Below are positions 1,674-61,999 of a stretch of DNA of 64,000 bases, in pieces. The translations under genes were made by a program, and so were the position numbers. Positions within the stretch are counted from its first letter, which is position 1, and every line of letters starts with the position of its first letter. The stretch comes from a virus (taxonomy: Duplodnaviria > Caudoviricetes). The DNA is taken from positions 48,226 to 112,225 of IMG/VR virus record IMGVR_UViG_2974513674_000001; one strand, given 5' to 3'. Below the pieces are notes generated by a model. It was not told the origin of the DNA. It saw nothing but the letters and a program-made list of their open reading frames with translations, and did not search any database.

Positions 1674-1704
1674 CCGCGTGCTCCCAGTTCTATTCGCGCA
1701 TAAT
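1674..1704 (+). promoter_or_regulatory. CC-N8-CC-N13-CATAAT promoter (first of a family of more than 20 copies, see findings)
   Basis: CC 1674-75, CC 1684-85, CATAAT 1699-1704, CC/GG-free to 1745. Confidence 0.7.
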
Positions 1705-1755
1705 TCAACTCGTATTCAGACGCAATTAAACGCTAATTCAAACAGGTCGAAATCA

Positions 1756-3840
1756 ATGGATCGCACCCAACGCATCGTCATCATGCGAGAGGCAATCACG
1801 AAGATTGCCCAAATCTTGACGGACAGCAAAGTCCTCGTCACCCAAGCGGGTGTGAAGGCATTCGTCAAGTACGACGACCGCACGCACAAGGCAACTCGGG
1901 TGAACATCCCGATGATCCCGGACGACGCCAGCGACGAGCTGATCGAAGGGATTCAGGGCTTCCTTGACAGCGAAATCTCCAAAGTCCTGTACGCAGACGG
2001 CAAGTCGAACCTGCGCGCAGCTCATGAGAACATGAGCGGCCTGTACAACCCGCTTGAGTCCTTCTTCTGCGAGAAGGAAATGGTCAAGAACTTCGCGGGT
2101 TCGCGCCACAACCTGGCGAACATGCACCAGACCTTCGTGGACAAGTTCATCGAGCCGAAGCTGAAAGAAGCCCTCGCGAACGGTGCCGAAGAGCAAGAGC
2201 TGTTCCAAGTCCTCGCGATCCCAGCACTGCGTGCCTGGGGCGGCCAGAAGTTCTTCATCGACTACATGAGCGACAAGTGGTCGCTGATCGCCGGCATTCA
2301 GAAGCAGCTCGACCCAGTCGCCAAGAAGATGCAGGGTATGACCAAAGCGTCTGACTGCTACGACATGGCGAAAGAGATTCGCAACGTCGTGATGGGCGAA
2401 CCCCCTGAAGGCGACGGCGATAACCCGTTCGGTGACGAAGACCCGAGCAAGTCCGGTAAGGGCGGCGGAGGTGGAGGCGCAGGTGGTCGCGGTGGCAAGT
2501 CAGGCGCGAAGGGCAAGCAGCCTCCGAAAGCAAACAAGGGTGCCGGCGCAGGCGAACTCGGTGACGAAGAAGACGAAGACCCAAGCGCTGCCGGCGGTGG
2601 TGGCAAGCCCGAACTCGAAGACGACGAGAAAGAAGAGGGTGAGGACGGCGAAGAGGATGATGATGACCTCGACGACGATGAAGAGGACGAAGGCGATGAC
2701 GAAGGTGATAAGCCTGAGCGTCGTGAAGAAGAGTCCGGTGAGGGTGGTGACGGCATCAGCTCTCAGCAAGAGAACCAGGGTCCGAAAGAGGACACTGAGT
2801 CCGCTCAGTCTGAATACGGTGGCGCCAACTACCTGAAAGACTTCGACTGGAACAAGACCCAGGACATCGGCACTGAGTTTGGCCAGTACGTCAGCGACCT
2901 GTGCTCCACTGAAATGGCTGAAGAGGACTACACCGTCTTCACCCGTGAGTGGGACCAACTCGAAGCTCCAAAAATCCCATCGTCGTACAGCCCAAAATGG
3001 CTCGAAGACATGGAGAGCGCAATCGCGGGCATGGTCGGCCCAGTGTCTCGCAACCTTGAGCGTGCGTTTGCAGCCCGGAACAAGTCGCTCACCCAGCAGG
3101 GTCTGCGCAAAGGCAAGATGTCGTCGAACAACCTGTATCGACTCGTCGCCGGCGACGACCATATCTACAAGAGCAAGATCGAGCACAAGACCCGGGAGAT
3201 TGCCGTGTCGCTGGTGATCGACTGTTCGGGCTCGATGGGTGGCTCCAAGATCCACACTGCCATGTGCAGCGCCTGGGTACTTGCTGACGTCCTGGGTCGC
3301 CTGGGTGTCGAGTGCGAAATCATGGGCTTCACCACCGGTGACCTGTACGCACAGCGGTCGAAAGACCTCTACAAAGAAATGTGCGACGAGCACGCCGCCG
3401 GCAGGGAATGGGACCGCTGCGAGCCACTGCGACTGCCGATGTTCAAGACCTTCAAAGAGAAGTTCTCCATCGAAGTCAAGAAGCGGATGGCCAGCTATGC
3501 GCACGTCCAGTCTTCGATGGCATCGAACATCGACGGCGAGTCGATCCAGTATGCCTACGAGTCTCTGAACCGACACGCCAATCGGGGTAAGAAGAAAGGC
3601 AAGATGATGATCGTCTTCAGCGATGGTCAGCCAGCAGGTGGTGTATCCAGTGCCAAGCTGAACGCCCACTTGAAAGCAGTGGTCAAGCGGATCGAGAAAG
3701 ACGGTACGAATATCGTCGGCGTCGGCATCATGTCCAACGCTGTGCAGCACTTCTACCGTAAGAACGTGAAACTGGACAACGTCGCCGACTTGCCGGGCAT
3801 CGTCCTGAATCAGTTGCGGGACGCGCTGCTTGCCAGCTAA
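1756..3840 (+). CDS. CobT-like von Willebrand A domain protein
   Basis: MIDAS DCSGSM and FSDGQP motifs, long acidic/Gly linker; start moved to ATG 1756, downstream of the promoter. Confidence 0.85.
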   Translation: MDRTQRIVIMREAITKIAQILTDSKVLVTQAGVKAFVKYDDRTHKATRVNIPMIPDDASDELIEGIQGFLDSEISKVLYADGKSNLRAAHENMSGLYNPLESFFCEKEMVKNFAGSRHNLANMHQTFVDKFIEPKLKEALANGAEEQELFQVLAIPALRAWGGQKFFIDYMSDKWSLIAGIQKQLDPVAKKMQGMTKASDCYDMAKEIRNVVMGEPPEGDGDNPFGDEDPSKSGKGGGGGGAGGRGGKSGAKGKQPPKANKGAGAGELGDEEDEDPSAAGGGGKPELEDDEKEEGEDGEEDDDDLDDDEEDEGDDEGDKPERREEESGEGGDGISSQQENQGPKEDTESAQSEYGGANYLKDFDWNKTQDIGTEFGQYVSDLCSTEMAEEDYTVFTREWDQLEAPKIPSSYSPKWLEDMESAIAGMVGPVSRNLERAFAARNKSLTQQGLRKGKMSSNNLYRLVAGDDHIYKSKIEHKTREIAVSLVIDCSGSMGGSKIHTAMCSAWVLADVLGRLGVECEIMGFTTGDLYAQRSKDLYKEMCDEHAAGREWDRCEPLRLPMFKTFKEKFSIEVKKRMASYAHVQSSMASNIDGESIQYAYESLNRHANRGKKKGKMMIVFSDGQPAGGVSSAKLNAHLKAVVKRIEKDGTNIVGVGIMSNAVQHFYRKNVKLDNVADLPGIVLNQLRDALLAS

Positions 3841-3930
3841 ACCCCATAGCTTCCCCAAACGTGCGCTCTTACAATGAGCGCACTCAAACGAAACAAGCAA
3901 TTTCAATTTTAAACAAACGAGGATTCACCA

Positions 3931-5157
3931 GTGAGCGATAAAATCAAGTGCGAAATCTGCGGCGAAGAAGTTCACAGCATCGCCAACCACCTGAAGACTG
4001 CGCACAACGAGGACTCGGCCAAGCCGATGGACCTCGAAACTTATCGCGCTACCTATCCGGGCGCTGAAATCTTGTCCGAGCTGGGCAAGAAGAAAATGGC
4101 CGAAATGAAAGCCAAGCGTGAAGCTGAAGAAGCCAAGACCGCTGCTGCGAACCCTGAAGCTGGCGCCAAGCCTGCTGCATCGACCAACCCGGACATCGCG
4201 AAGGTCTTCTTCCACGAAGTCTTCAAGTTCCCGAAGAGCCCCAAGTCGGCCTTCACCAAAGCCGGCACCGGCATCCCTTGCACTGCTGACGCCCGTGATA
4301 GCAGCGTCGATGGTCACATGATCCCGGCCTGGTCCGACAACTACATCCTGAACCCAGACCTGACGAAGACCGTCATGATGGCGTTCGAGATTCGCACCCC
4401 GATCTTCCTGTATGGTCACTCGGGTGTGGGCAAGTCGTCGATCTTCAAGCAAATGTGTGCCGGCCTGAACCGCCGTCTGTTCCGCTTCCAGCACACCGTT
4501 GACACCGAAGAGTCGCACATCGTTGGTCAGTGGGTCGTCAAGCCTCACATCAACCCGGATGGCTCTGCTGTATCGGTCACTGAGTTCGAGCTGGGTCCAT
4601 TGCCAATGGCCATGCTCAACGGCTGGACCTACCTGGCTGACGAAATCGACCGTTCGTCTCCGACTGTTCTGTCCGCGTATCAAGCGATTCTCGAAGGCGA
4701 GCCGCTGATCATCAAGAACGCCCCTGCTCACCTTCGTGTGATCAAGCCGCACCCGCTGTTCGCGTTCGCTGCAACTGGTAACACCAACGGCACCGGTGAC
4801 CAATCCGGTCTGTACCAAGCAACTCTGACCCAAGACGCCGCGACCATCGAGCGTTTCGGTGTTGTAGCGATGGTGGACTACCCACCAGAGAAGCAAGAAA
4901 TCGCCATGATCGCAGCAGCGACTGGTCTGTCCGAAGCTGACGCGAAGCGTATTCGCCAGTTCGCTGACGAGATTCGCACCAAGTCGTTCCCGAACATCGT
5001 GTCGCTCACCATCGGCCCGCGTGTTGCGATCAACATCGCTCGCATCGGCATGATGAAGGCTGACTTCGTAGAAGGCGCGCTGTATGCCTACTGCAACCGT
5101 CTGCCTGAAGCTGAGAAAGAAGCAGCACTGGGTGTCGCGAAGCGTATCCTGGCGTAA
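3931..5157 (+). CDS. CobS/MoxR-like AAA+ ATPase with N-terminal C2H2 zinc finger
   Basis: Walker A GHSGVGKS, Walker B LADEID, sensor ATGN, Arg finger ERF; CEIC...H...H; adjacent to vWA gene. Confidence 0.88.
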   Translation: MSDKIKCEICGEEVHSIANHLKTAHNEDSAKPMDLETYRATYPGAEILSELGKKKMAEMKAKREAEEAKTAAANPEAGAKPAASTNPDIAKVFFHEVFKFPKSPKSAFTKAGTGIPCTADARDSSVDGHMIPAWSDNYILNPDLTKTVMMAFEIRTPIFLYGHSGVGKSSIFKQMCAGLNRRLFRFQHTVDTEESHIVGQWVVKPHINPDGSAVSVTEFELGPLPMAMLNGWTYLADEIDRSSPTVLSAYQAILEGEPLIIKNAPAHLRVIKPHPLFAFAATGNTNGTGDQSGLYQATLTQDAATIERFGVVAMVDYPPEKQEIAMIAAATGLSEADAKRIRQFADEIRTKSFPNIVSLTIGPRVAINIARIGMMKADFVEGALYAYCNRLPEAEKEAALGVAKRILA

Positions 5158-5173
5158 CATCGGCAGTAACTGA

Positions 5174-5202
5174 GAAAGCAGGTCTTCGTGACCTGCTTTT
5201 TT
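5174..5202 (+). terminator. intrinsic terminator
   Basis: AAAGCAGGTC-ttcgt-GACCTGCTTT followed by T-run. Confidence 0.75.
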
Positions 5203-5226
5203 GTCTTCATCGTAGGAGTTCGGCGG

Positions 5227-5769
5227 ATGCAATTCGATAAACCCGGATGTTTCGGGAACGCAATCACCTACAGCGTCAAGTCCAAGTCATGCCAGGAGTG
5301 CGAAGAGAGCCACTCATGCGCTCTGGCAGCCCGTCAGCGGATCGAAGAGCTTCGATCCCTCATCAGCGTAGAGGCGATCCTCAAAATGTCCCACAAGAGC
5401 CCGGAGAAGCCTGTAGAGAAGACCAGGTTCGACGCTGACTTGCCTGAGACAGCCCAGAAACTAATCGCTATGCTTCCTGACAACGCGCAGCGCACAGCAG
5501 CGCAGTTACTCAGGCTGAAGGTGAACTTCAGAAAGCACCTGATCGAAGGCATCAACCCGATCAAGAACCAGAAGCCGCTCGCGGTAGCCGTTCTGTTCGA
5601 CCTGCTTCTGAAAGGGCCAGTAGAACGCATCACCTATCTGTTGGAGCTGAAGAATGTTCTCGGACACAGCCCGGCAGTAGCAGCAAGTCAAGCCGCAATT
5701 GGGGTCGCTGTCGTCGTGGGGCTGGGTATTGCCAAACGCGAAGGCGAGAATCTGATTATCAGGAGATAG
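5227..5769 (+). CDS. hypothetical protein (N-terminal Cys cluster)
   Basis: AGGAG RBS; C...CxxC...C; directly upstream of dnaE. Confidence 0.7.
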   Translation: MQFDKPGCFGNAITYSVKSKSCQECEESHSCALAARQRIEELRSLISVEAILKMSHKSPEKPVEKTRFDADLPETAQKLIAMLPDNAQRTAAQLLRLKVNFRKHLIEGINPIKNQKPLAVAVLFDLLLKGPVERITYLLELKNVLGHSPAVAASQAAIGVAVVVGLGIAKREGENLIIRR

Positions 5770-5770
5770 A

Positions 5771-8700
5771 ATGAACAACCTCTTAGGGGCCAAGACCCAC
5801 TTTAGTCTCGGCGAATCCATCTACGACCCGGAAGCCCTCGTCAAAAAGGCAGAGCTTGCCGGGTACGATGGCATTGTCGTGACCGATGTCGAATCAATCG
5901 ACTCGATGCCAATCCTGGCGGGCAAGGCGAAGGGCCTGCAAGTAGGACTGGGCGTGCAAATCTCAGTCGTCCAAGACCTGACCTGGGTCGCAGCCAAACG
6001 GGGCGAGCCCAAGCGCGCGCCAAACCCGTTCTTCATGCCCACTCTGTTTGTTCGGAACGATGCCGGCTTCGCGGACTTGTGCGAGCTGTTGACCCTCGCC
6101 CAGAGCGAAGATCACTTCTGCACGAAGCCAAGCCGTATGCAGATCGACCTGAGCGAGCTGCTGGCGTTCGTGCAGCGGGGCAACCTAACGATGACGCTGG
6201 GAAGCGCTTATAGCGCGCTACAGCACAAGCAACGCGAAGCGCTGCTAGATGCGTGCTGCGATGTCTTGGACGTCTCACAGATGCTCTGTGAGCTGATCCC
6301 AGTTAGCAGCGCATTCTATGATCGACACAACTTCAACACGCTGAAGCTGATGCAGGAACGGGGCATCGAAGGCATCGTTACCAGGCCGACCCTCAATCAG
6401 AAAGACGAGGTCAGCTTCCGCAACACGATGAACTCGATCCTGTCGCACGACAAGGTCGACAGCACCTGGCGCCGCGAGCCGCCCGAAGACCTGCACATCA
6501 TCGAAGCAACCGAAGTGGTCACACACGTCGGCACCCTGATCGAACGCATGGTCAAAATGGGGTTCGATGATGACGCGGCAACGGACATGATCAATCAGGC
6601 TTGGTGCAAGAACCAGGCGTACTTCACTGACCACCCGTACAAGTGGTCGAAGATGACCCCGAGCCTGCCCGTCATGTCTGCCAACCCAATGGCTGACATC
6701 GTCGCGATCTGCAAGCAAGGCTGGAAAGAGCGCCTGGGCAAAGAGGTGTTCGGGTACAAGCCTGACGCAAGCCTGCTGCCCAAGTACCAGGAGCGCCTGA
6801 AGTATGAGCTGTCGATTCTCCAGAAGATGGAGTTCGAGCCGTACTTCCAGCTCGTTCACTACATCGTCAACTGGTCGAAGAACGACGGCATCATGGTTGG
6901 CCCGGGTCGGGGTTCGGTAGGTGGTTCGCTCGTTGCGTACCTGATGGGGATCACCGACGTGGACCCGATCCGCTTCGACCTGATCTTCGAGCGCTTCATC
7001 AACCCGGAACGTATCGACTTGCCCGACGTCGACCTCGACTTCATGTCCAGTCGCCGTCAAGACATCGTCGACCACCTGGTGAGCAAGTTCGGCGACGAGC
7101 GTGTCGTCCAGATCGCCAACTACAACACCATCGCCGGTGCTGGTGCGATCCAAGCGGTGGGCAAGGCTCACGGCCTGCATGAGAGCCAGTACGAGTGCTC
7201 GAAGCTGGTTCCGAAAGAGTCGGGCGTGCCAATCCCTCTTGAGAAAGCGGTCGCGTTCGTGCCCGAACTTGAGAAGCTGGCTCTGAACCACCCTGAAGTC
7301 TGGGCAGCGTCCGTCGGCCTGCAAGGCACCTTCAAGAACTTCGCCAAGCACGCAGCCGGTGTCGTCGTAGCCGGTACTGACATCGTGGGTCGCGGCGTAG
7401 TGAACCGGCGCCAGGGTGTGGGTATCGTGAACTGGGACAAGCGGGTCGTCGAAGACTTCGGCTTGATCAAGCTCGACGTGCTGGGTCTGTCCAACTTGGA
7501 TATTCTCCGTCTCGCACGGGACTACATCCGCGAAGCGCACGCAATCGAGGTCGACTTCACCACGCTTCCGCTCGACGACAAGAAAGTCCTGGACAGCTTC
7601 GCAGCGGGCAAGACCTATGGCGTGTTCCAGTTCGAGTCTGGGGGTATGCGCAAGCTGCTCAAGGAACTCGGCAGCGGGGGCAATCTGACCTTTGAAGACT
7701 GTGTCGCCGCAACAGCACTGTTCCGACCCGGCCCAATCCAAGCTGGCCTGATGGACCTGTACGTGTCGATCAAGAAGGAATTCACCGAGCCGGAGTATCT
7801 GCACCCGAACATGAAAGCCGCACTGGAGCCCACGATGTCTGTGATGGTCTACCAGGAGCAGGTCATGCAAATCTCCCGTGACCTCGCCGGCTACACGTTC
7901 CCAGAGGCAGACGGCCTGCGGAAGATCATGGGTAAGAAAGACCCGGTCAAGATGGCCGAGCAGCGCGACAAGTTCGTCGATGGCTGTATCGCTACGTCTG
8001 GATTGGATCACGCAACCGCAACCTTCATCTTTGAGCAGATCGAGAAGTTCGCTGGCTACGGCTTCAACAAATCCCACTCCGTCGCGTACACCCTCATTTC
8101 CTACATGACCATGTGGGTGAAGGTCTACTACCCAGAGGCGTTCTACGCCGCGTGCTTGTCGATCTTGGACGAGCAGAAGCTCTCAGGGCTAGCCAAAGAC
8201 GCGCAAGCGAACGACATCTACATTGTCCCGCCTGACATCAACCACAGCTCAGGGCGGTACGAGGTGGGCTTTGATGCGGCACGGGGTCAGAAGATTCTGT
8301 ACGCACCGTTCCAGTCGATCAAAGGCATGAGCGACAAGTCGGCCGCTGCGATTGTGGCAGCACGTCAGAAGCTGGGTCGCGGCTTCAAGAATAAAGCGGA
8401 GCTGATCCTCGAAGTGGACCGGCGCGCTTGCAACAAGCGTCACCAGGAAATGCTGGACAAGATCGGGGCATTCGCCAAGATCGAACCTGGCCAACTGGAC
8501 GCCCGACACCCGGATCGGTTGCGTGACCAGAAGGAGCTGCTGCCGGGCATCGTCGTCAGCAACGTGAAGGCGGAGAGGGTGATCGAAATCACTGGCGATG
8601 TCAGCGCAGAGCTGATCCAGATCGTCGACGACTTCCAAGCACACAAAGGCTGCGACGGCTGTCCGTTCATTGGTCGACCGCACCCTATGCCAGTCCTGGG

Positions 8701-10516: not shown

Positions 10517-10519
10517 CGA

Positions 10520-16292: not shown

Positions 16293-18226
16293 AAATCCTG
16301 AAGGCGATCATCGACAACTTCGCCGCCATTGGGCACATCGAGGTCGAGCTGAATGACAAGGGCTTGGTGCTGATCCAGGGCGACAACAAGGACGACACTT
16401 CCCAGGACTCGAACGGTTCGGGCAAGTCGACCCTGCCGGATGCGCTGTGCTGGGCCTTCTACGGCGAGACTGCCAAAGGTCAGTCCGGTGACAAGCTGGT
16501 CAACCGCACCGCCAAGAAAGACTGCGCCGTTGAAGTGCATGTGGTCGACGAAGACACCGACGACGTGTTCCGCATCAGTCGTCACCGCAAGCACAAGACC
16601 TACAAGAACATGCTGCGCCTGGAAGTGCTTCAGGGCTCGAACTGGAAAGACCTCACCGGCGGCACCGACAAGCTGACCCAGGCGCTGGTCGAGAAGGTGA
16701 TCGGCTGCAACTACGAAGTCTTCAAGTCCGCGATCTACGCTGGCCAAGAAGCCATGCCCGATCTGCCAGGCATGACCGACAAGCAACTGAAGGTGCTGAT
16801 CGAAGAGAGCGCCGGCATTGCACAGCTTCAAGCAGCCTCTGACATCGCGAACCGCCACGTCAAAGACCGCAAGCTGATCGTTCAGGATCACCAGGGCAAG
16901 ATCGACAAGCTCCAGTCCAACATCGAATTGCTGGACAGCAACATCGTGACCCTCAAAAGCCGTTCGGAAGCCTGGGAAATCACTCAAGAAGCCAATATTG
17001 GCATCGCTGAAGACAACGTGACCACGCTCGAAGCCTCGTTCGACGACGCCCTGGGCGACCGCATCACGAAGAAGAAGACCCAGCTCGCTGACAAGTCCTC
17101 TGAAATTCGCACGCAGATCGCCGGCAGTGATGCTGAGCGTCTGCAAGAGCGTGTGCTGGCTGATGCGAAGGCGAAGGCTGACGCAGGCGAGTCGAACGCT
17201 GCCCACGCTTATGACACGGCCAAGAACCGCGTCAGCCACGCAGAGCACGCCTTGTCGCACGCCGGTGAGTCCGGTCACTGTGACACCTGCGGTCACGAAC
17301 TCGACGCCAGCAACGTCGAGACGGCTAAAGCCAACGCTCAAGCAACGCTCGACAGCGAGAAATCAGCGCTTGCAGCAGCGAAGAAGGCACTGTCTGTAGC
17401 GCACGACAGCGCTGATACAGCGACGAAAGCGCTAGCAGAGCATCGCGACAACATGACAGACGTTAGCGCGCTCACAAGCGAGCTACAGACGATCAGCGAG
17501 AACAGCGCGAAGCTGGACGCTGCGCTGACCGCCTGGAATCGTCAGAAGACTGGTCTTGAAGCGGCGAAGGCCAACGTCCAGGCTGAGCGCGACAAGAAGA
17601 ACCCCTACGGTCAACAGATCACCGACGCCGAAGCGCAGATCGACACGATCAACGCCAAGATCGAGGAAGTCGAAGAGCGCCGGGTCGAAGCAGCCAAAGA
17701 GCTGTTCATCGCCGAAGAAGCGGCGCGAGTGTACAACCAGGCCGGCGTGCGAGCGCACATCCTGGACACCGTGACGCCGCACCTGAACGCCCGCACGTCG
17801 CACTACCTGTCCACGCTGACTGACGGCAACGTCTCCGCTATCTGGTCGACCGTCAGCAAGACTGCCAAAGGCGAGCTGCGCGAGAAGTTCGTGATCGACG
17901 TGGAGTCCAAGACGGGCGGCGAGTCCTTCAAAGACCTGTCGGGCGGTGAGAAGCGCAAGGTTCGCCTGGCGTGTGCAATGGCTCTGCAAGACCTGGTTGC
18001 AAGCCGGGCCAACAAGCCGATCAAGCTGTTCATCGCGGACGAAATCGACACCGCACTCGACGCAGCCGGCCTGGAACGCCTGATGGCAATCCTCGATGCG
18101 AAGTCGCGAGACAAGGGCACCGTTCTGGTAGTCTCCCACTCCGACCTCCGCGACTTCATCCGTAACAGCGTGACGGTCGTCAAGCAGGGCGGCAAAGCTA
18201 CCCTGGAAGCCAACACTATCCTGTGA
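16289..18226 (+). CDS. sbcC: SbcC/Rad50-like ATPase
   Basis: Walker A NGSGKS, coiled coil with CDTC zinc hook, LSGGE signature, IADE Walker B; start at ATG overlapping the sbcD stop. Confidence 0.92.
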   Translation: MKILKAIIDNFAAIGHIEVELNDKGLVLIQGDNKDDTSQDSNGSGKSTLPDALCWAFYGETAKGQSGDKLVNRTAKKDCAVEVHVVDEDTDDVFRISRHRKHKTYKNMLRLEVLQGSNWKDLTGGTDKLTQALVEKVIGCNYEVFKSAIYAGQEAMPDLPGMTDKQLKVLIEESAGIAQLQAASDIANRHVKDRKLIVQDHQGKIDKLQSNIELLDSNIVTLKSRSEAWEITQEANIGIAEDNVTTLEASFDDALGDRITKKKTQLADKSSEIRTQIAGSDAERLQERVLADAKAKADAGESNAAHAYDTAKNRVSHAEHALSHAGESGHCDTCGHELDASNVETAKANAQATLDSEKSALAAAKKALSVAHDSADTATKALAEHRDNMTDVSALTSELQTISENSAKLDAALTAWNRQKTGLEAAKANVQAERDKKNPYGQQITDAEAQIDTINAKIEEVEERRVEAAKELFIAEEAARVYNQAGVRAHILDTVTPHLNARTSHYLSTLTDGNVSAIWSTVSKTAKGELREKFVIDVESKTGGESFKDLSGGEKRKVRLACAMALQDLVASRANKPIKLFIADEIDTALDAAGLERLMAILDAKSRDKGTVLVVSHSDLRDFIRNSVTVVKQGGKATLEANTIL

Positions 18227-23244: not shown

Positions 23245-23366
23245 TCGACGTGCGACCTGACATCTGAACAGGTAGCAGCTCAGGGACGAGCTGATCCCCA
23301 CGTAACCCCAACAATCGAGCGCTATCATTAGCGCTCGAATCGTTTAAACAGCATGAGACTCAAAGA

Positions 23367-24275
23367 ATGATCAGCATGTCCGAGAAACTTGTAGAAATCG
23401 AACCGATGTCCGAAGAGCAGTGCTGGGCATCCATCGACCGTGTTGCTGAAGTCATGACCGTACCCGGCATGATGCAGTCCGAGCTGAAAGCTGATTCAGA
23501 CCTGGGCAAGCCGTTCACTGATAACGCCAAGCAAATCCTGCACATCATCGTGGATCACTTCGACGCCGGTGAATCGCCGGATGACGACAAGCTGATCGAC
23601 GGCTTGAACGACCTGTTCATCCAGAACCAGGCGCTGCAAACCAAGTACACCATCAAGCTGCTGACCCAGGCGTCGATTGCGATGCAGCAATTGCCGCTCG
23701 CTGCGATGATCACCAGCATTCAAGACGTCGAATCGAAGGACGGCCTGACCCAAGAAGGTCTGGAAGAACTGAAGGCGATGGAAACCGAAGACAAGAAGTC
23801 CGGCATGGCCAGGATCGAACCTCGTCTGATGAAGATCATGGGCCTGGGTATCGACGCAGCCGGCGGTCAGCTTGAGTTCGCACGCCTTCAGAAGATCGTC
23901 AGCGACAAGATGCCGGAGCACTTCAAGGCCAGCCCTGAAATCGCCTTCACCTCGCAGATGATCGGCGCAATCATGACCGCTGTCACCGCCCGCGCCGAGT
24001 CTCGCGAGTTCACCTTGTCGCAGATTCGTGCGACCATCGAAATGGTGATCGGCGCCAAGCAGGCTCTGACACTGGCCAACATGACTGCGTACCACATGGG
24101 GTCGAAGGAAGTGGTCGGCATCCTGGTTCGCAGCGCAGAGCACCACATCAATATCTCTGTGGATGAAACTGTCGTTGAAGTGCCTGAGAAGCAGAAGGTT
24201 GAGATTGAAGCGACCCACGTTGCCGATCACAAGCCTACTTCGACCCACGTTGCCGGCAACCGGACTGTCAACTGA
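23367..24275 (+). CDS. hypothetical protein
   Basis: 302-aa ORF behind a CC-N8-CC-N13-TATCAT promoter. Confidence 0.8.
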   Translation: MISMSEKLVEIEPMSEEQCWASIDRVAEVMTVPGMMQSELKADSDLGKPFTDNAKQILHIIVDHFDAGESPDDDKLIDGLNDLFIQNQALQTKYTIKLLTQASIAMQQLPLAAMITSIQDVESKDGLTQEGLEELKAMETEDKKSGMARIEPRLMKIMGLGIDAAGGQLEFARLQKIVSDKMPEHFKASPEIAFTSQMIGAIMTAVTARAESREFTLSQIRATIEMVIGAKQALTLANMTAYHMGSKEVVGILVRSAEHHINISVDETVVEVPEKQKVEIEATHVADHKPTSTHVAGNRTVN

Positions 24276-26981: not shown

Positions 26982-27287
26982 ATGCGAGCGAATATGAGAG
27001 CGATACAGACGTCCTCCGCGTTAGTTGTGCTCATTGCTGCAAGTGTTCTAGTTGTCGTCGCTGCACACGCTACAGAGCGTCACAGCGACACGCACAGCGA
27101 GCACAGACATAGCAGACACGAAACGCGACACATACACGCAGAACGCGAGCGCTACGAGCACCCGCCGCTGCACAGCGAAGGCACTCGGGAAGATGCCGAC
27201 GCCTATCCCTCGTTCGATGATCCGGCTGACTACCGTGAAACCAATCGCTACAACCCATACTCCGATGAAACCTACGACGAAGAGTGA
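26982..27287 (+). CDS. signal-peptide-bearing His-rich hypothetical protein
   Basis: hydrophobic N-terminus; contains a CC/GG-free patch at 27017-27161. Confidence 0.5.
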   Translation: MRANMRAIQTSSALVVLIAASVLVVVAAHATERHSDTHSEHRHSRHETRHIHAERERYEHPPLHSEGTREDADAYPSFDDPADYRETNRYNPYSDETYDEE

Positions 27288-35510: not shown

Positions 35511-35615
35511 CAGAGCCCAGGATTTCGCCACGCACTGCCTATTCCTGCTCTGTATAGTTCACTTACTGAAACGCGACACACATTAAACAACTCAGCTTAA
35601 ACAGGTACTTACAGC

Positions 35616-36906: not shown

Positions 36907-37423
36907 ACTGGTTCCATCCAACCAGTGGGGCACGAACCTGCGCAGCGTCCTGGCTCCGAAAGTCTGGGACTCGCTCCGCAAAGCCTGCTACGAACGTGCC
37001 GGCCACCGCTGCGAGATTTGCAATGGCGTCGGTCGCACCCACCCGGTCGAGTGCCATGAAACCTGGGAGTACACCGATGGCCCCGTGTGGATTCAGAAGC
37101 TCACCGGGTTGATCGCGCTGTGCCCAAGCTGCCACAAGGTGAAGCACATTGGCTTCGCGCTGACGCAGGGTGATCGCGCTTTCATGGCTGCGCTGAACCA
37201 CCTGGCCAAAGTCAACGGCTGGTCGCCCACGCGGACGTATGACTACGTGAACAACCAGTTCGAGATTCACCGGGTTCGCAGTCAGATGCACTGGGTCATG
37301 GACCTCGACTGGCTCGACAACATGCAAAGCTACATCGACGAGACAGCAACCGCAGCACGGCAAGCTCGCTCTGAGCGCGCTGCTGCGACGATAGCGAATA
37401 TGACTCGCAAGCGTGACGCTTAG
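36887..37423 (+). CDS. HNH-type nuclease
   Basis: CEIC...ECHE...LCPSCHKVKH; GGAGG RBS. Confidence 0.75.
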   Translation: MPKLTCELVPSNQWGTNLRSVLAPKVWDSLRKACYERAGHRCEICNGVGRTHPVECHETWEYTDGPVWIQKLTGLIALCPSCHKVKHIGFALTQGDRAFMAALNHLAKVNGWSPTRTYDYVNNQFEIHRVRSQMHWVMDLDWLDNMQSYIDETATAARQARSERAAATIANMTRKRDA

Positions 37424-37529
37424 AGCGAATCGCTCTTAAACGAGCGCACAGAGCGTCCAACAGAGCTGAGTGGGCGCCAAGTAGTGCCACTCAGCAGTCT
37501 GTAGAATTGCAGACTTGAAGGAGAGTTTT

Positions 37530-42988: not shown

Positions 42989-43524
42989 GTCCTGAGTACA
43001 ACCTGGTCAAGTCCTACTACGGTGATCAGCGCGCCAAGCGTTCCGGTGTCCTCAAGATGAACCACATCGACGAAGGCATCGAAATGCTGCGTGTGATGGG
43101 TGCAAGTGAGCTGGCCATCAAAGCCTACTGCCTGCACCCTCTGGCCCAGGGTGGTGACTTCGGCTGGGAAATGGTTCTGACCACGCCCGGCCTGAACCCG
43201 AAAGCCGTGATCCTCTCGACCCAGTATCGTGACAAGGCAAACGCCTACCTGTGCCGGCCCAACACCGATCACTACACGGTCGAGAGCCTGAACGACGTCA
43301 TTGGCCCTCTGAGCCAAGACCTGATCCACATGCTGGTGGCTGACAAGATCCAGAACGAGAAAGACTTCGATCTGTATCACAAGGGCACCCACGCTCGCAG
43401 CGCCGAACTCTCCCGGTACTTCTGCATCTGGCTCGACTACCTTGAGGTGGCTGAAGCCAACCTGAAGAAAGAATCCGGCCGTCTGAAGTACCGCCATAAA
43501 TACCGCGACCACAAGAAGAAGTGA
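42979..43524 (+). CDS. hypothetical protein
   Basis: RSGV..MNHIDEG...YCLHP; family not confidently recognised. Confidence 0.65.
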   Translation: MHLSPEYNLVKSYYGDQRAKRSGVLKMNHIDEGIEMLRVMGASELAIKAYCLHPLAQGGDFGWEMVLTTPGLNPKAVILSTQYRDKANAYLCRPNTDHYTVESLNDVIGPLSQDLIHMLVADKIQNEKDFDLYHKGTHARSAELSRYFCIWLDYLEVAEANLKKESGRLKYRHKYRDHKKK

Positions 43525-47105: not shown

Positions 47106-47200
47106 CCAAAGTGCGCTGCTGGTCGCCGACTGGCAGCCACGCACTGCCTTGATCTGTCTCGTAAAATGCTTGCACACGTCACAAACGAGAGTGCAAGAAA

Positions 47201-47752
47201 ATGACAGATAAGAAGAACGGCCATGACCACGACCCAGCTCATGAGTGCGCACACTGCGCAGCACTCGCTTCAGGCATGTCTGAAGAAGAGGCTCTTGTCG
47301 CCGGCCTGCTGACCACTCAGCAGATGATCCAGGCTCACGGCATCGCAGTCATGGGTGTCGGTCCTGACCCTGAGACTGGCATCCCCTCGTTCTGCTACAC
47401 CACTGGGTTCACCAGCATTGGCTTCCCAGAAGTCATCTGCTTCGGCGTAGACCCTCGCGTTCTCACCCACGTCTTCAACATCTACCACGCTGAGCTGCTT
47501 GCGGGCAGCAAACAGCCGGGTGCCGGGTTGATCGACTACTTCGAGCTGCCGATTCATGCCATCGAGTGCGACTTCGACAACGCCAAAGAGTTCGCGACCC
47601 AGGCTGTCGCCTACTACGAGATTGTCGAAGACGACAAGGTCACACCGAATTTCGTTCAATGGGTGCTGGCTGACATGAACGGCAAGATGCCCTGGGAACC
47701 CGGCTTCAACCCGGCGTTCACTCAACCGCTGCTGGGAGCAACACCGGAATGA
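47201..47752 (+). CDS. DUF4262-like protein
   Basis: FCYTTG...PEVICFG...Q.V..D..G..PWE. Confidence 0.7.
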   Translation: MTDKKNGHDHDPAHECAHCAALASGMSEEEALVAGLLTTQQMIQAHGIAVMGVGPDPETGIPSFCYTTGFTSIGFPEVICFGVDPRVLTHVFNIYHAELLAGSKQPGAGLIDYFELPIHAIECDFDNAKEFATQAVAYYEIVEDDKVTPNFVQWVLADMNGKMPWEPGFNPAFTQPLLGATPE

Positions 47753-49496: not shown

Positions 49497-49969
49497 ATAA
49501 AATAATCGCTTGCAAGAAGGCCGCTGAGAACCAGTGGCCTTTCTTTTCATGAACATGCTGCCTTGGCCCCCTGAACATAGCCGAACTTTGAACATACGGT
49601 TGTGCAACCGTTTATGCGACAAAAGCCAACATCTACGGGGGTTAGACAGGCGTTTACCTGTGTTTGCATGTTACTGGGTTGTTCATAGCCCACTGAGACG
49701 TTTCTACAGTCACTCGCACACGAAAACAGATCGTCGGGAAGACGTCTGAGACGTTCTGAGAGCGACGAACCAGATCGAAACAAATCAGCGTAGCGCTCAG
49801 ACAAGAACGCAGCTTAAAAGCGCTCTGAGAGCGTCGTGATTTTTGAGTAGGCAGCCGGATTGTGAGCCGATGCTCTCCCTCATAAAACAAGAGATAATTA
49901 GATAGCTAGAAGTATAAATAAGGGAAGAGTTGGATGAGGCTCTTCAGGTACAACCAACGAGGGATTCAC

Positions 49970-52468: not shown

Positions 52469-52743
52469 CGCTCTGGGAGAGCAGGCAGTGGAAGCCACCC
52501 GGAAGCCGAAAGACCTACAAGATCAGCCTGCTCATTCGCTGTAGAATCGCACTCACAGCAAGAGACAAACGAAGTACAGCACAGACGCAGCGGGAAGCGC
52601 TCTGAGAGCTTCACAGAGCGACGAACGAGCTACAGAGCAGCAGAGACGCGCAGAACATCAAACAAGCGTCACAGCAGCTACAGAATTCAGCCAGGTCAGG
52701 GCGCAAATACTGACCCTCTCGTCAGCCCGCTTGAGGGCTGTTG

Positions 52744-52784: not shown

Positions 52785-52810
52785 ATCAGAAAGGCTGGCG
52801 CCCCAAGGGA

Positions 52811-53160
52811 GCCGCGGTCAGAACCAAGCCGCGGGCACCACTAGAGCCGCGGTGTCTCTTCTCTCCTATCAGCCGCGGTAAGCCGTCTCTCCCCTCTCTA
52901 TGGTCAACCAAGGCTCGGACCCCAACAGTGCCGCGGCAAACCTTGAACTGGAGAACCACGGCTTAATCCGGTGTCCCAGAAATTCCCTATAGGCGCCGAT
53001 ATAGAGACAGGCTGGCTTTGTACCTAGGCTGTGAGACCACGGCGCACCTCACCAGGGTACGGGGAGCCGTGGCGTCCCTTCACAGCCTGATGGTGTACCG
53101 CGGCGGGCTTGGGGCCTGGCCCTCCCAGAAGGCAACCACGGCACTGCTGTGGCCGCGGCT
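52811..53160. repeat. CCRYGG (mostly CCGCGG) cluster around a 34-bp core element
   Basis: about 11 CCRYGG hexamers; core 52979-53012 is 30/34 identical to 55164-55197. Confidence 0.75.
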
Positions 53161-53259
53161 TCAGTGTGGCTTGCAAGCGTTTACCTGCACATGCCATTTG
53201 CAAGCGTTTATTATGTATGCAGATCGAAGCACACGACTTCGGCAATACGAGAGCAAGAC

Positions 53260-53556
53260 ATGAACAAGATTGATCAAGCCGCAGTTGAGCTGCGCGACTT
53301 CACCTATTCACAGCACAGCAGCAAGGTGCTGTTGCAAGCGGCAAGCGGTGATGACCTCTATGTGGTCGTAGAGACTGAAGCCGGGTTTGAGTACGCCAAG
53401 TTTCTCTTCGGTGGTTCTCAGACTGGGAAAGTCGAGCTGATCACCGACACTCACTCCGCCAGTGAACGCAAGACGTTCAGCTCCCGGGGTGTAGCGTGCG
53501 TCTACATGGCTGAGAAGCTGCTTGAAGAAGAAACCGGCTACGCACAGGGAGAGTGA
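53260..53556 (+). CDS. hypothetical protein
   Basis: promoter at 53184-53214. Confidence 0.62.
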   Translation: MNKIDQAAVELRDFTYSQHSSKVLLQAASGDDLYVVVETEAGFEYAKFLFGGSQTGKVELITDTHSASERKTFSSRGVACVYMAEKLLEEETGYAQGE

Positions 53557-53819
53557 CCGTGAACAAGCAAGAACTGACCGCGTACCTCGATCAGCAGAAA
53601 TCCCGATTCATCGAAGTCTACGGGGGAGAGATAGTCACCCATGCTCCCAAAGCTCCCGTAGAGCACCAGCGCAAGAGTTTTGCAAGACAGCTTGAGACCC
53701 GGAAGAAGCCTGCCCACCTCAAGCAAGAAGAGTGGGAGAAGTACCTCTCTGAAGTCGCAAGCGGGACATACAAGCCGCAAGAGTACGAAGTCGACCTCTA
53801 CGACTACACCGGTTTGTAA
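53553..53819 (+). CDS. hypothetical protein
   Basis: GGGAG RBS; coupled; terminator follows. Confidence 0.6.
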   Translation: MTVNKQELTAYLDQQKSRFIEVYGGEIVTHAPKAPVEHQRKSFARQLETRKKPAHLKQEEWEKYLSEVASGTYKPQEYEVDLYDYTGL

Positions 53820-53964
53820 GCAGCAAGAAGCCACCTTTGCCCGGAGGGTGGCTTCGCCACAGAAGCGCCGCGGCGGATTCCTGGCTGCCGACACATACCT
53901 ATAGCAAGCGTTTACTATGATCTCACTGAAGCGAACGACTTCAGACCACTGAGAGATAGTCACC

Positions 53965-54312
53965 ATGAAAAACCTCGCAATACTGCTCCGTGAAATGCAC
54001 GCACACGAAGATGGGATGACCCTTGAGCAGTACCTGGGTCACTTCACCAGAGTCTTCAAAGAGCAGGGACTGTTCAAGCTCGAAAGCTGTGAGGGAGATA
54101 CCGGGTTCCTTCTGCGCAGCGATGACGGGACTTATCACGTCTGGTTTATGGGAACCACCACCTCTCCCCGCTATGAGGGTGAGCGTTATCACGTCACAGA
54201 GACCACTACCTGGGCTCCCGAGAAGCTCAGTGAAGCCATGAACGCCCTCATGATGCAGATGCAGATCGACTGTGAGGGATTGATCGAACGCAACGGGGAG
54301 AAATACCAATGA
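53965..54312 (+). CDS. hypothetical protein
   Basis: promoter at 53888-53918. Confidence 0.62.
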   Translation: MKNLAILLREMHAHEDGMTLEQYLGHFTRVFKEQGLFKLESCEGDTGFLLRSDDGTYHVWFMGTTTSPRYEGERYHVTETTTWAPEKLSEAMNALMMQMQIDCEGLIERNGEKYQ

Positions 54313-54527
54313 TCACCACAGCAGCCCTGAGCAAGACCGTGTTCCTCGTTGTGCTCGCTTGTAGCGGTGATCCCCGTGAGGGTAAGTGCGGGGACAGCTT
54401 CGATGCAGAAAGCTGGACAGGTCCACAAGCGAAGCAAGAGTGTGAGACCTTCTTGCGGGAAGAGTTCGACCCCAGCAACTACCTCACCCTGGTAGACGAC
54501 GAGTACGCCGCAGTCAGATGTGAGTAA
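54309..54527 (+). CDS. small exported Cys-rich protein (possible lipoprotein)
   Basis: hydrophobic stretch ending VLAC. Confidence 0.5.
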   Translation: MITTAALSKTVFLVVLACSGDPREGKCGDSFDAESWTGPQAKQECETFLREEFDPSNYLTLVDDEYAAVRCE

Positions 54528-54575
54528 GAGGGAACCCGGTGATCCGGGTGCTCCCACACAGAACCTCGCCGCGGC

Positions 54576-54652
54576 ACGGTCCATGTAAATCAGGCACACA
54601 GGCACGCATACGTGAGAACGACGGTCCACCAACTTCCGGCCACACGCATGAG
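54576..54652 (+). repeat. ACGGTCCA...CAGGCACAC repeat, copies 3-4
   Basis: homologous to 52388-52468. Confidence 0.72.
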
Positions 54653-54803
54653 AGGCCCTACAAGGCTCTCTAAGGGCTTCCAAGGGCTTTAGGAGCGTCG
54701 TTGTAGCCGTGGGAGTAGCAAACGCCGTGTAGAGCCTTCTAGAGAGCTGTAGAATGCACTTACAGACAGCGCATCGACTGTCTGACTATCGAGAGCACAT
54801 GAA

Positions 54804-55106
54804 ATGTCCCAGACTCCCAAACAAGAAGCCCTTTTCAAACGCGCACTATCGTTCACCGAGAGTGAGCAGTTTGACGGCTACCCTCATCTGTCTGATACCG
54901 ACAACACGCTGATCATCGAAGCCGCTCAAGAAGCGAACAGCCCGGATACTGCTCAGTTTCTCGCCTTTGCTTTGAGCGAAGCAACATCGACCAAAGAAGA
55001 AGCGGCGAACGCCAAGCGCTACTTCGATGCCTATATTGACAATGTCTGGGTCGCTAACGTTTCTGAGAGTGGCAACCCGCTGTTTGATGTTGAAGACGAA
55101 GCGTAA
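54804..55106 (+). CDS. acidic hypothetical protein
   Basis: promoter CC(54725)-N8-CC(54735)-N13-TAGAAT(54750); terminator at 55112-55137. Confidence 0.65.
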   Translation: MSQTPKQEALFKRALSFTESEQFDGYPHLSDTDNTLIIEAAQEANSPDTAQFLAFALSEATSTKEEAANAKRYFDAYIDNVWVANVSESGNPLFDVEDEA

Positions 55107-55149
55107 CCAGAACCCGGGCTAACTACCCGGGCTTCTTGAGAGCTATAGA

Positions 55150-55328
55150 GCCGCGGTGCTCTGGAAATTCCCTATATGGCCCGATATAGGGACAGGCGGC
55201 CCTTGGTAGAGCGGAAATGAGTCACCGCGGCGCTAATACGGGAGCGGGCCGGCGAGCCACGGCAAAAGCCGCGGCGCTGTTCCCAGGCTGCGGGTTCGGT
55301 GGTGTGGTTTCTGAGGTGGGCCGCGGCG
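55150..55328. repeat. second CCRYGG cluster with core element
   Basis: 5 CCRYGG hexamers; core at 55164-55197. Confidence 0.72.
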
Positions 55329-55427
55329 AGTGCCGGGCTGGGGCTCTGGGAGCTGGTTTTCAGCTCTGGGGCTTTTCTGCTTTCTTGTGATCAGTATAAA
55401 CGCTTGCACAGGCTTTGCAAGCGTTTT

Positions 55428-55619
55428 TTAGACTTTCCCGAAAAACTTTTTGAAAGCCAGTTTCCGAGCTTCCCACTTTTCTGCCTTGAGTCGATCCTGC
55501 TCCACAAGCTCGTCCCAGCGATAGTACGTTTTGACTCCCAGAACGTCCCGTTTGAATTCGCTCCAAGCCCAGCCCAAGAAGACGAAAACACATACTACTG
55601 CGAAAATCATGCTCATCAT
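55428..55619 (-). CDS. small membrane-anchored protein
   Basis: AAGGA RBS; hydrophobic N-terminus; sigma70 promoter TTGCAA-17-GATAAT on the minus strand (about 55653-55681). Confidence 0.6.
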   Translation of the reverse strand: MMSMIFAVVCVFVFLGWAWSEFKRDVLGVKTYYRWDELVEQDRLKAEKWEARKLAFKKFFGKV

Positions 55620-55738
55620 GTCCTTGCTTCCTTATTGTGTGTGCGTGCGATGATTATCGAATATTCGCTTGCTCATTGCAAGCATTATTTCGATATAAGC
55701 ATTATTCTTTTCCGATCTAAGAAAAATCGAAAATTCGC

Positions 55739-55766
55739 TTGCACACGTCTCGAATTCGCGTAGAAT
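55739..55766 (+). promoter_or_regulatory. canonical sigma70 promoter with A-rich UP element
   Basis: TTGCAC-16-TAGAAT, preceded by GAAAAATCGAAAATT. Confidence 0.75.
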
Positions 55767-55842
55767 TCAAATTGTCGAAACGCACAGCGCTAGACGAACT
55801 TAAACGAAGCGCAAAACGCGCTCATTAAACGAGAGAACTAAA

Positions 55843-56397
55843 ATGACTACTATCAACGCTAAAGCAGAATCTTTCAAAAACGTTTTTGCTACTGCTGCTG
55901 TTAACTACGCTCAAACTAAAGAGCAAGCGCAGCAAAACGCAGAACAAGCGCAGTCTGAAGAAGAGCGCGAAACTTTCGCTGCTGCTGCTAAGAAAGCTGA
56001 CACACACGCTCGCTACACTGAAGCGCTGTCGAACATGAGCGAAAAAGCGCTTGCAAGTCTGAGCAAGTACAAAGTTAACGCTGAAGCGCTTGCAGAACAA
56101 TCGCGTGAACTGAAAAAACGCTCTATCGCGATTCTTGAAGCGCTCGCAACAAAACAGCGTGTGAATGATCGCGCACTTGACGCAGTATTGCAGTACATCG
56201 TTAAAAACGATGCTGCTGCAATGAATCTTGAGCAAGTGCGTCATCAAATGCAGCATGATACTTTGACTCAAGCGCAATACTTCAAAACTTGCGCAATCTT
56301 CTTCAACTTCGCGCAATACTCGAAGTCTGAAAAGACTATCAGCTTCAATAAAGACGCAATCGTTCTTAAAGAGCTGATCGCAATCTACAGCGCTTAA
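55843..56397 (+). CDS. 184-aa helical protein with no Gly, Pro or Trp (candidate immediate-early regulator)
   Basis: own sigma70 promoter, GAGAG RBS and terminator; whole unit has no CC/GG. Confidence 0.85.
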   Translation: MTTINAKAESFKNVFATAAVNYAQTKEQAQQNAEQAQSEEERETFAAAAKKADTHARYTEALSNMSEKALASLSKYKVNAEALAEQSRELKKRSIAILEALATKQRVNDRALDAVLQYIVKNDAAAMNLEQVRHQMQHDTLTQAQYFKTCAIFFNFAQYSKSEKTISFNKDAIVLKELIAIYSA

Positions 56398-56406
56398 TCA
56401 ACACAC

Positions 56407-56440
56407 AAGCGCTACAGCACACGCTGTAGCGCTTTTCTCT
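56407..56440 (+). terminator. intrinsic terminator built without CC/GG
   Basis: AAGCGCTACAGC-acac-GCTGTAGCGCTT followed by TTCTCT. Confidence 0.8.
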
Positions 56441-56464
56441 CAGTCTAGCAGTCGAGCTATCAAT

Positions 56465-56788
56465 ATGAGTCATTCGCACGCTGTACGCGCTCACAGACAC
56501 GCTCTCACAGTAGATACACGCATGTACGCTACATGCGCACGCAATGCGCTGTATGAGCTGCGCTATGTGAAGCGCTCACAGCGCTACTATCTGCATGTAG
56601 CTAACAGCGTGAGCGTGATTGTAGACGCTGCTACAGCAAGCGCTGTATACGCTGCTATGATGCGTCATGTAGTGCGCACTACAGCTAAAGACAAGCGCGC
56701 TACTAGTGCGCGCACTAGTGTATATACAATGCGCAGTGATATACGTGCGCTGTTACTTGCTGAAAATATGAGCAAGTATGCGCACTAA
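56465..56788 (+). CDS. possible basic protein (also no Gly, Pro or Trp)
   Basis: 107-aa ORF with weak RBS; may be non-coding. Confidence 0.35.
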   Translation: MSHSHAVRAHRHALTVDTRMYATCARNALYELRYVKRSQRYYLHVANSVSVIVDAATASAVYAAMMRHVVRTTAKDKRATSARTSVYTMRSDIRALLLAENMSKYAH

Positions 56789-56798
56789 GTCACATTGA

Positions 56799-56827
56799 AC
56801 TAGTGCAACTTAGTTAGTTGCACTAGT
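56799..56827. repeat. perfect 12-bp inverted repeat
   Basis: ACTAGTGCAACT-tagtt-AGTTGCACTAGT; related palindrome ACTAGTGCGCGCACTAGT at 56702-56719. Confidence 0.8.
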
Positions 56828-56902
56828 CTAGTTGTCAAAGTCTTAGAAGGGATTTTTAAAGTCGCGCCCTATTGGCGCCAATGTGCCGGACCCCACAGAA
56901 GT

Positions 56903-57436: not shown

Positions 57437-57440
57437 CCTC

Positions 57441-58661: not shown

Positions 58662-58664
58662 CCC

Positions 58665-60891: not shown

Positions 60892-60930
60892 GATGGTGCC
60901 CTCAAGTGGTACACCATCATGCTACGCCGA

Positions 60931-61191: not shown

Positions 61192-61281
61192 TGTCGCGGT
61201 CCTATGGTCTGAGGGGTCAATAAGCGCTTATGATAATGCGTACATCACGGGCAGTCAGCCCAAATCAGCGGGGAATGTAGA

Positions 61282-61809
61282 ATGACCACACTTGCATTTG
61301 ACGGGCGTTACCTGGCGGCAGATGGCCGCATGACTCGATCCGAGATTGTTGTGTCCGCGACCACCAAGAAGCTGCACCTGATCGAAGCCGTGATCCGCGG
61401 TGAGGTTCAAGAGGTGATGGTCTTCGGCGCTGGGAGCTGGAACGGCATCTTCGCCATCATGGAATGGATGAAGGTGAACGACGTGTTCGACATCGACCCG
61501 GACCTCGGCCGACCCCACTTCCCTGAAGACGGCGAATGCGGCCAAAGTCGTCAAGACGTGTCGTTCATCACGAAAGCCGGCGAGCTGTTCGCCCTGGACC
61601 CACAATCGCGGCCGGCGCCGTATGAAGCCCCGTATGCAGACGGCAGCGGATTCCCCTTTGCTCAGATGGGGCTCGAACTGGGTATGTCCGCGGTCGACGC
61701 CGTCAAAGCTGCCATCAAGATGGACGTGCATAGCGGCGGGGAGATTACTTGCTTCGACGTGAAGTCCTGGCGCTGGGTCGACCCTGAGACTCTCAAGCCC
61801 CTCAAGTGA
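61282..61809 (+). CDS. Ntn-hydrolase (HslV / proteasome-beta-like)
   Basis: N-terminal MTTLA..., AADG, K, GSG, D.HSGG. Confidence 0.72.
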   Translation: MTTLAFDGRYLAADGRMTRSEIVVSATTKKLHLIEAVIRGEVQEVMVFGAGSWNGIFAIMEWMKVNDVFDIDPDLGRPHFPEDGECGQSRQDVSFITKAGELFALDPQSRPAPYEAPYADGSGFPFAQMGLELGMSAVDAVKAAIKMDVHSGGEITCFDVKSWRWVDPETLKPLK

Positions 61810-61960
61810 TCTGGGAAGCTGCATTAGAGCGCGCTAGTAGCGCGCTTTTTTGTGAGTGCGACACTGACGCACAGAGCACGCGAAAACGTCTCAGAACGCA
61901 CGGGAGAGCGTCTGCCAGCGACAGATTGTCGAGCTGATCAGACGCAGAACGCACAGACGC

Positions 61961-61999
61961 AAAAAAGCCCCCGAGATAGCTAATCAAGGGGGCTTTTCA
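61961..61999. terminator. bidirectional terminator
   Basis: AAAAAAGCCCC...GGGGCTTTT between convergent units. Confidence 0.7.

Follow-up and report, generated by a model that had tools for sequence, protein, structure and literature searches.

A CC/GG-free gene island in a relative of the Nickieviruses points to a possible self-made DNA mark at CC/GG steps

In phages of the T5/T7 type, pre-early genes lie at the DNA terminus, in a long direct repeat that lacks a motif, and the first-step-transfer DNA of T5 and the leading region of T7 are without 6-bp host restriction sites; to our knowledge, the early genes of T4 are not purged of C. Three further systems invite comparison with the locus presented here. 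At the MotA middle promoters of T4, a phage element near -30 replaces the -35 box and is combined with a normal -10 (PMC6755090), and MotA accommodates modified cytosines (Cuypers 2018, cited there). The Mom protein of phage Mu is a tRNA-dependent GNAT that installs 6-NcmdA at SAS (PMC13219725, PMC7261163), and the ABC ATPase-GNAT system of Tenacibaculum phage pT24 (COG2401/MK0520-type annotation) is predicted to acylate a DNA base (PMC7824862, citing its ref. 136), with no target base or motif known to have been described. Here we analyse a 64,000-nucleotide stretch (the window, whose numbering is used below unless genome positions are indicated), positions 48226-112225 of the 112,225-bp phage genome IMGVR_UViG_2974513674_000001, in which a gene island is devoid of CC and GG dinucleotides, and we propose that the phage may mark its own DNA at these steps.

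The island spans 1,137 bp (55713..56849) and contains 0 CC or GG vs. 101.5 expected, with a further 82-bp CC/GG-free run adjoining it (55631-55712). Expectations for the island and for shorter free tracts were taken from composition-corrected counts and from sequences simulated for the window with an order-3 Markov model, in which the longest CC/GG-free run never exceeded 110 bp; the second-longest run in the 112-kb genome measures 145 bp. Coding sequences were tested by synonymous resampling under genome codon usage with the protein held fixed, which gives a log10 P of -32 for the absence of CC/GG from the island; as ACC, which makes up 60% of threonine codons genome-wide, is used for none of the 12 threonines in the island, synonymous choices obey the ban too. 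Avoidance of CC/GG steps for fast expression on physical grounds (stacking, melting, pausing or oxidation), without a dedicated factor, would sit well with the island's lower GC content (46% vs. 57%), but GC, CG and C-N-C are plentiful inside it, so that the ban falls on the dinucleotide itself. Since the ban moreover admits no exception, deprives the proteins of three amino acids and differs between lineages in its flanks, and since the longest CC/GG-free runs in phiKMV and lambda are 48 bp and 141 bp, this physical explanation appears hardly credible. The original prediction, made from the letters of the window, had described the island together with phased-CC promoters, periodic CC/GG-free pads and dense CCRYGG clusters beside the island, and had proposed one CC/GG-reading cause for all four; each of these observations holds up below, with the pad period restricted to part of the genome, and the common cause is supported for the island, promoter cores and pads, the CCRYGG clusters more likely denoting the left end of a terminal repeat.

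Transcription of the island would start from a predicted σ70-type promoter (TTGCAC-16-TAGAAT, 55739..55766, plus strand), followed on the same strand by a gene for a 184-residue protein (55843..56397), a terminator-like hairpin that is itself free of CC/GG (56408..56437; similar hairpins occur in relatives) and a second open reading frame (ORF) of 107 codons (56465..56788), which has homologues of 99-107 residues at the same position in ZY21, hairong, L007, L008 and L011. Neither protein contains glycine, proline or tryptophan, and about one-third of the 24 family members of the 184-residue protein lack all three altogether; selection on a two-letter DNA word is thus strong enough to strip these residues from proteins. 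The AlphaFold2 model of the 184-residue protein (predicted local distance difference test score of 96.8) features an N-terminal helical hairpin and a C-terminal winged helix, the latter matching TubR/ArsR/MarR winged helices over residues of about 105-184 (VIA Z 8.0-8.9). Fold searches returned generic winged helices, with no match to MotA or AsiA among them. Because the winged-helix fold is confident, the protein is a probable DNA-binding regulator, and we consider it a candidate for the first regulator made upon infection, putatively an activator.

The nearest records to the genome are the Nickieviruses ZY21, phiK7B1, Nican01 and hairong, whose host is Pseudomonas syringae, and its core genes and gene order match those of the SSU5-like phage-plasmids (SSU5, RHEph10, B1VFA). 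Neither a plasmid replicon nor a parA gene was recognised in the genome, and Nican01 is predicted to be virulent. The literature on the SSU5-like supergroup and Nickieviruses mentions neither DNA modification nor an island, and our literature search found no paper on a CC/GG-free island or on modified SSU5-like DNA. The ban persists at 50% protein divergence and is found in both Pseudomonas and Rhizobium phages. Islands of diverged sequence measure 1,108 bp in ZY21, 1,125 bp in hairong, 1,083 bp in Nican01 and 1,490 bp in the L007 contig, and across these three phages and six IMG/VR contigs the free run over the same gene extends for 660-1,490 bp. Rhizobium phages have a similar island (B1VFA, 851 bp; V1VFA-S, 1,279 bp; RHEph10, 549 + 424 bp), with the gene in reverse orientation and weak sequence kinship; homology of the island gene to the family is likewise weak in B1VFA (E 0.03) and SSU5 (E 1.5e-4), and for RHEph10 the ORF scored, the annotated one of the opposite strand, has no match to the family. 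That annotated gene, gp097 (L022:49105-49785), has apparently been assigned to the wrong strand: a 188-aa ORF with 0 proline or tryptophan and one glycine is present on the minus strand, and a promoter-like region lies within the island.

More distant relatives show a narrower ban over the same gene family. In a composition-corrected scan for banned contexts, where the best control values were 11-16 (the uncorrected version gave 42.9 for lambda's AT-rich region), VCCK is found 0 times vs. 29 expected in SSU5, VCC 0 vs. 39 in G008, BCC 0 vs. 54 in L019 and CCR 0 vs. 52 in L009, with VCC in L020, VCCV in G012 and BCC in G006 further examples within the distant-relative range of 25-54 expected. 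Five other relatives, G003, G004, G013, ANB28 and JGB6, have no clear island (expected 7-22, near the control level). DNA-modifying enzymes typically recognise a dinucleotide whose flanks drift, and the banned context shifts among lineages as enzyme specificity would. G012 encodes two winged-helix paralogues (L094:14008-14529 and 16801-17352), one VCC-banned and the other with normal CC/GG; its use as a natural knockout was dropped, as a fused ABC-GNAT is present and a VCC-poor island lies over the second paralogue.

The ban recurs at promoters. Genome-wide, the arrangement CC-N8-CC-N13-TAnnnT occurs 15 times on the plus strand and 0 times on the minus strand, 11 clear instances falling in the window, whereas the 70 spacings scanned average 3.4 matches on both strands; in three genomes the 8/13 spacing yields 15-22 matches vs. 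means of 3.2-3.5. The two CC steps sit at -37/-36 and -27/-26, with a loosely conserved middle, and 60% of promoter matches are CC/GG-free from the spacer to +20, vs. 6% of 253 decoys. In the window, all on the plus strand, these include one with a CC/GG-free core (23298..23380), one free through the ribosome-binding site (47137..47219), one within the proposed terminal repeat (54725..54808) and those starting at 35528, 37477, 39200, 41082, 48189, 53184, 53888 and 57650. As the ban thereby extends to promoter cores genome-wide, it suggests that RNA polymerase is hindered when it works on phage DNA. The arrangement resembles T4 middle promoters in its conserved element at a fixed distance from the -10 and in place of the -35 box, and MotA offers a precedent for the reading of modified DNA at promoters; it differs in consisting of two CC steps and in its candidate factor, which has a winged-helix fold rather than the double-wing one. 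The promoter CCs may, however, act as plain sequence contacts and not as modified-base marks. The 8/13 geometry stands out in the Nickie clade only and is not conspicuous in RHEph10, B1VFA, SSU5 or G014.

Where the island lies on the packaged DNA can be approached through its surroundings. CCRYGG sites, present at 0.16/kb elsewhere in the window, form one cluster of 11 at 52812..53153 and a second of 5 just upstream of the island at 55151..55321, and island-adjacent clusters of 9-12 sites per kb are found in ten other genomes or contigs, some of which have no CCGCGG at all. The right island edge carries the motif AAGTCTTAGA (56838..56847, plus strand), which in Nickie, hairong, L007, L008, L010-L012, B1VFA, V1VFA-S and RHEph10 coincides with the island edge or sits no more than about 50 bp from it, and from which the second cluster keeps a distance of about -1.2 to -1.9 kb in relatives. 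The terminal repeat has been reported, in text without coordinates, to measure 3,605 bp in B1VFA according to PhageTerm and 3,939 bp in V1VFA-S according to read mapping (PMC12509600), and Nican01 is listed with a direct terminal repeat, 'DTR (long)' (PMC11256456). We searched for 3,605-bp windows of B1VFA whose V1VFA-S counterpart is 334 bp longer: 148 of the 76,266 testable starts fit within 1 bp, and they form a single block (start 39631-39778, end 43235-43382) whose end interval brackets both the B1VFA island edge (43259) and AAGTCTTAGA. Counted back from AAGTCTTAGA, the published repeat lengths lead in both phages to the same base (within 1 nt), which is the start of the CCRYGG cluster. 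As the repeat sizes fit only this one position, the island probably, and on strong grounds, abuts one physical end of the virion DNA, a placement that is new here; by analogy, the repeat in our genome would span about 52810-56850, the first CCRYGG cluster lying at its left end and AAGTCTTAGA at its right. In sequencing run X5, contig depth is 84-95 at 52.4-54.6 kb vs. 41-55 beside it, which fits a terminal repeat, although other runs differ and depth is not copy number. The clusters more likely mark the left repeat end than a modification hot spot. A GAAATTCCCTATA-like sequence occurs in two copies inside the clusters (52977-53010 and 55163-55200), and AAATT(T)CC words resembling GAAATTCCCTATA are found near the island in SSU5, RHEph10 and ANB28.

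As in the T5/T7 terminal units, then, the island would be part of a long direct terminal repeat, to judge from its relatives; here, unlike there, a dinucleotide is banned, the proteins are reshaped, and the ban recurs at internal promoters. The parallel raises the possibility that a host defence reads or cuts CC/GG on first-entering DNA, and that the terminal island is free of these steps so that its product can neutralise the defence first, in the manner of T5 first-step transfer. The probable terminal position and the purging of many restriction palindromes from the genome speak for such a defence. We nevertheless consider it improbable, for neither the promoter cores devoid of CC/GG nor the pads that lie within genes 50 kb away from the end are explained by it, the remainder of the same terminal repeat is CC/GG-rich, one and the same defence would be needed across Rhizobium, Pseudomonas and Salmonella hosts, and the island product resembles a DNA-binding regulator.

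The search for a writer led outside the window, where the original prediction had placed a modifying enzyme and where a candidate was indeed found: upstream of the terminase genes, at genome positions 3383-6849, lies a module of two ParB-N genes, an ABC ATPase gene (genome 5011-5649; PF00005, E 3e-13) and, adjoining the latter, the gene for a 293-aa GNAT (genome 5968-6849). The 293-aa protein adopts a GNAT fold with a helical insertion (helices at 172-253, before the last strand), superimposes on Mu Mom (8bv8) with a Z of 10.6 and an rmsd (root-mean-square deviation) of 3.9 over 150 aligned residues, and has the cytidine acetyltransferases TmcA and NAT10 among its Foldseek matches; in sequence, no PDB, Pfam or NCBIfam match to Mom was found. 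In G012 the same genomic slot holds a fused ABC-GNAT that matches the pT24 protein (E 3e-55); with this G012 fusion the Nickie GNAT aligns in hhalign with an E of 0.035 over a short acyl-CoA-loop-like stretch only. Homologues in SSU5-like phages are annotated as MK0520-type. Mu carries mom directly after its tail-fibre genes, and homologues of the pT24 type sit right after the tail-fibre genes in Mu-like phages. The module thus shares with the pT24 system an ABC ATPase and a GNAT, here as two separate genes accompanied by the two ParB-N genes and with CC/GG as its presumed target, and with Mom the GNAT fold with helical insertion and a proposed late, post-replicative, context-specific DNA modification. 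Unlike Mom, which targets adenine, it has an ABC ATPase partner and CC/GG as the likely target, and an anti-restriction effect is not evident, as judged indirectly from avoided words.

The GNAT gene is found in 29 phage and 967 plasmid records, the latter mostly from Klebsiella, Escherichia, Acinetobacter and Enterobacter. Across Nickie, RHEph10, B1VFA and SSU5, the ABC ATPase (53-72%) and the GNAT (39-63%) are among the best-conserved genes. No methyltransferase, TET, DpdA or glycosyltransferase was detected among the 11 Pfam families and the best 25 of 43 PHROG families matched by the 96 unannotated ORFs, a search that remote members could escape; one of these ORFs has a weak Pfam match to Hfq (E 4e-5). 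Elsewhere, the ABC-GNAT gene is followed by a formyltransferase gene in two Mu-like phages and lies between ParB and aspartate decarboxylase genes in Jace (L131:21674-23406, L132:22411-24140 and L133:43134-45213), neighbours that hint at differing acyl donors. The genome-wide CC/GG odds ratio is 0.48 in the ABC-GNAT carrier Arthrobacter phage EastWest (L130, OK999980), 0.71 in phiE255, 0.74 in Jace, 0.86 in Komp and 0.90 in SL25, next to 0.92-0.94 in phiKMV and lambda; relative to these two phages, genome-wide avoidance of CC/GG in the carriers is possible.

Shorter CC/GG-free tracts, or pads, punctuate the rest of the window, with 26 runs of at least 55 bp vs. 10.3 in simulations (maximum 17) and 5 coding-sequence runs of at least 60 bp vs. 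0.5 after synonymous resampling. Six pads are spaced 9.6-12.4 kb apart (spacing coefficient of variation 0.093; p 0.002-0.01, corrected for picking 6 among 8-10), a period confined to the early/replication half of the genome and followed nowhere in a 39.6-kb structural stretch, which has no pads. They comprise runs of 68 and 56 bp in dnaE (6201..6355; same codons in ZY21, hairong and G002, partly in G004 and G014), conserved runs of 55 and 129 bp in sbcC (17332..17515; log10 P -4.0 and -7.9 given the protein), 145 bp at 27017..27161 (147 bp in ZY21), 98 bp at 37360..37457 (98 bp in ZY21 and hairong), 80 bp at 49771..49850, and 88 + 53 bp at 61815..61968 (100-101 bp in relatives); the dnaE and sbcC pads exceed what synonymous resampling predicts and occupy identical codons in relatives. 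A further 98-bp pad, left of the first CCRYGG cluster (52594..52691), falls outside the 10-12-kb period. CGCTAS words are common to the pads (6201-61968) and the 3' part of the island (56410-56700), at 5.3/kb vs. 1.0/kb in short free runs, a sharing that is weaker in hairong and absent in SSU5.

In light of these results, we lean towards a model in which the phage would modify the CC/GG steps of its own genome, probably at a late stage and near the time of packaging, with the GNAT acyltransferase, the ABC ATPase and the two ParB-N proteins encoded beside the terminase as the likely writer. The mark would hinder the unmodified host RNA polymerase, so that the phage keeps free of CC/GG the first-read unit, in which σ70 drives the winged-helix regulator gene where the long terminal repeat ends, and the melting and early-transcribed parts of its other promoters. 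At the latter, two CC steps one turn apart would replace the -35 box and likely serve as the regulator's site, and the CCRYGG clusters would mark the opposite repeat end, for packaging or end processing. We hold this reading, with a self-made mark written by the GNAT/ABC module, to be moderately favoured by the evidence, and a polymerase-hindering CC/GG mark irrespective of its writer to be likely. A stronger version, in which a packaging-coupled acyl mark would act as a regulatory code that closes the incoming genome to host RNA polymerase save for the mark-free terminal operon, whose winged-helix product would read two marked CC steps a turn apart and thereby activate the other promoters, with mark-free pads every 10-12 kb as loading sites, is a speculative and unlikely extension.

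Several observations weigh against a self-made mark written by the module. Neither chemical data nor nanopore or PacBio signals attesting to modification were found. The candidate GNAT is no nearer to Mom than to other GNATs, which tie with it in structural comparison. Every long island-bearing contig has the module, but it belongs to the core genes of the family and is also present in the island-less G003, G004, G013, ANB28 and JGB6, and five unrelated ABC-GNAT phages have no island either; its co-occurrence with islands is therefore weak evidence, and the link between the two circumstantial. Most gene bodies have normal CC/GG levels and must still be transcribed, so that any block has to be incomplete; it may be relieved by the island product, or speed may matter at the first step only. 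Finally, the idea that the modification shields the genome fares poorly, as CC/GG restriction palindromes have been eliminated as often as others: 6 of 13 palindromes with CC/GG and 19 of 38 without fall below 0.2 observed/expected (p 0.20), G014 alone leaning toward sparing of CC/GG palindromes (p 0.011). Restriction-site avoidance in the genome is very strong, with fourteen 6-bp palindromes without CC/GG (CAGCTG 0 vs. 87 expected) and five with it (GGATCC, CCATGG, AGGCCT, GGGCCC and GGTACC) wholly absent. Since CC/GG sites are still purged, the benefit of the mark is not evident; a mark that is partial or confined to virions could be compatible with this.

The same observations lend room to two other explanations. 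The weak co-occurrence of module and islands, and the many ORFs still unannotated, would permit a covalent CC/GG mark to be written by another, unrecognised phage enzyme or a recruited host enzyme; few unknown genes, however, are common to Nickie, RHEph10, B1VFA and SSU5, where the ABC ATPase and GNAT stand out by their conservation, and we deem another writer quite improbable. Alternatively, a packaged or early-made phage protein might occupy CC/GG non-covalently, with the free tracts offering RNA polymerase and other machinery a place to land, and with the GNAT module serving some other purpose. Such a coat makes sequence predictions identical to those of a covalent mark and accords with the unspared CC/GG restriction sites, the CGCTAS words shared by pads 10-12 kb apart and the occurrence of the module without islands, but the Pfam and PHROG scans of the 96 unannotated ORFs gave no candidate coating protein, a predicted DNA-base acylation system adjoins the terminase, and a dinucleotide target whose flanks drift fits DNA-modifying enzymes instead; on balance we view it as unlikely.

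If the module does write a CC/GG mark, this would be the first target prediction for a predicted ABC-GNAT DNA acylation system, with flanks set by lineage (e.g., VCCK in SSU5), and it can be tested in cultured phages, namely the nickie relatives, SSU5 and B1VFA. The approach also offers a method by which a modification motif can be read from sequence alone. Should the regulatory-code version hold true, DNA modification would here serve mainly transcriptional timing and not anti-restriction.

Apart from the island and its promoters, eleven unrelated proteins were seen to end in G-x-[W/F]-[A/S/G], ten of them in the window (18234-59962; ORF ends at 18929, 19804, 32405, 34911, 37811, 38092, 38487, 45701, 50856 and 59962) and one at genome position 47546; the shared terminus is possibly a docking or degradation tag.

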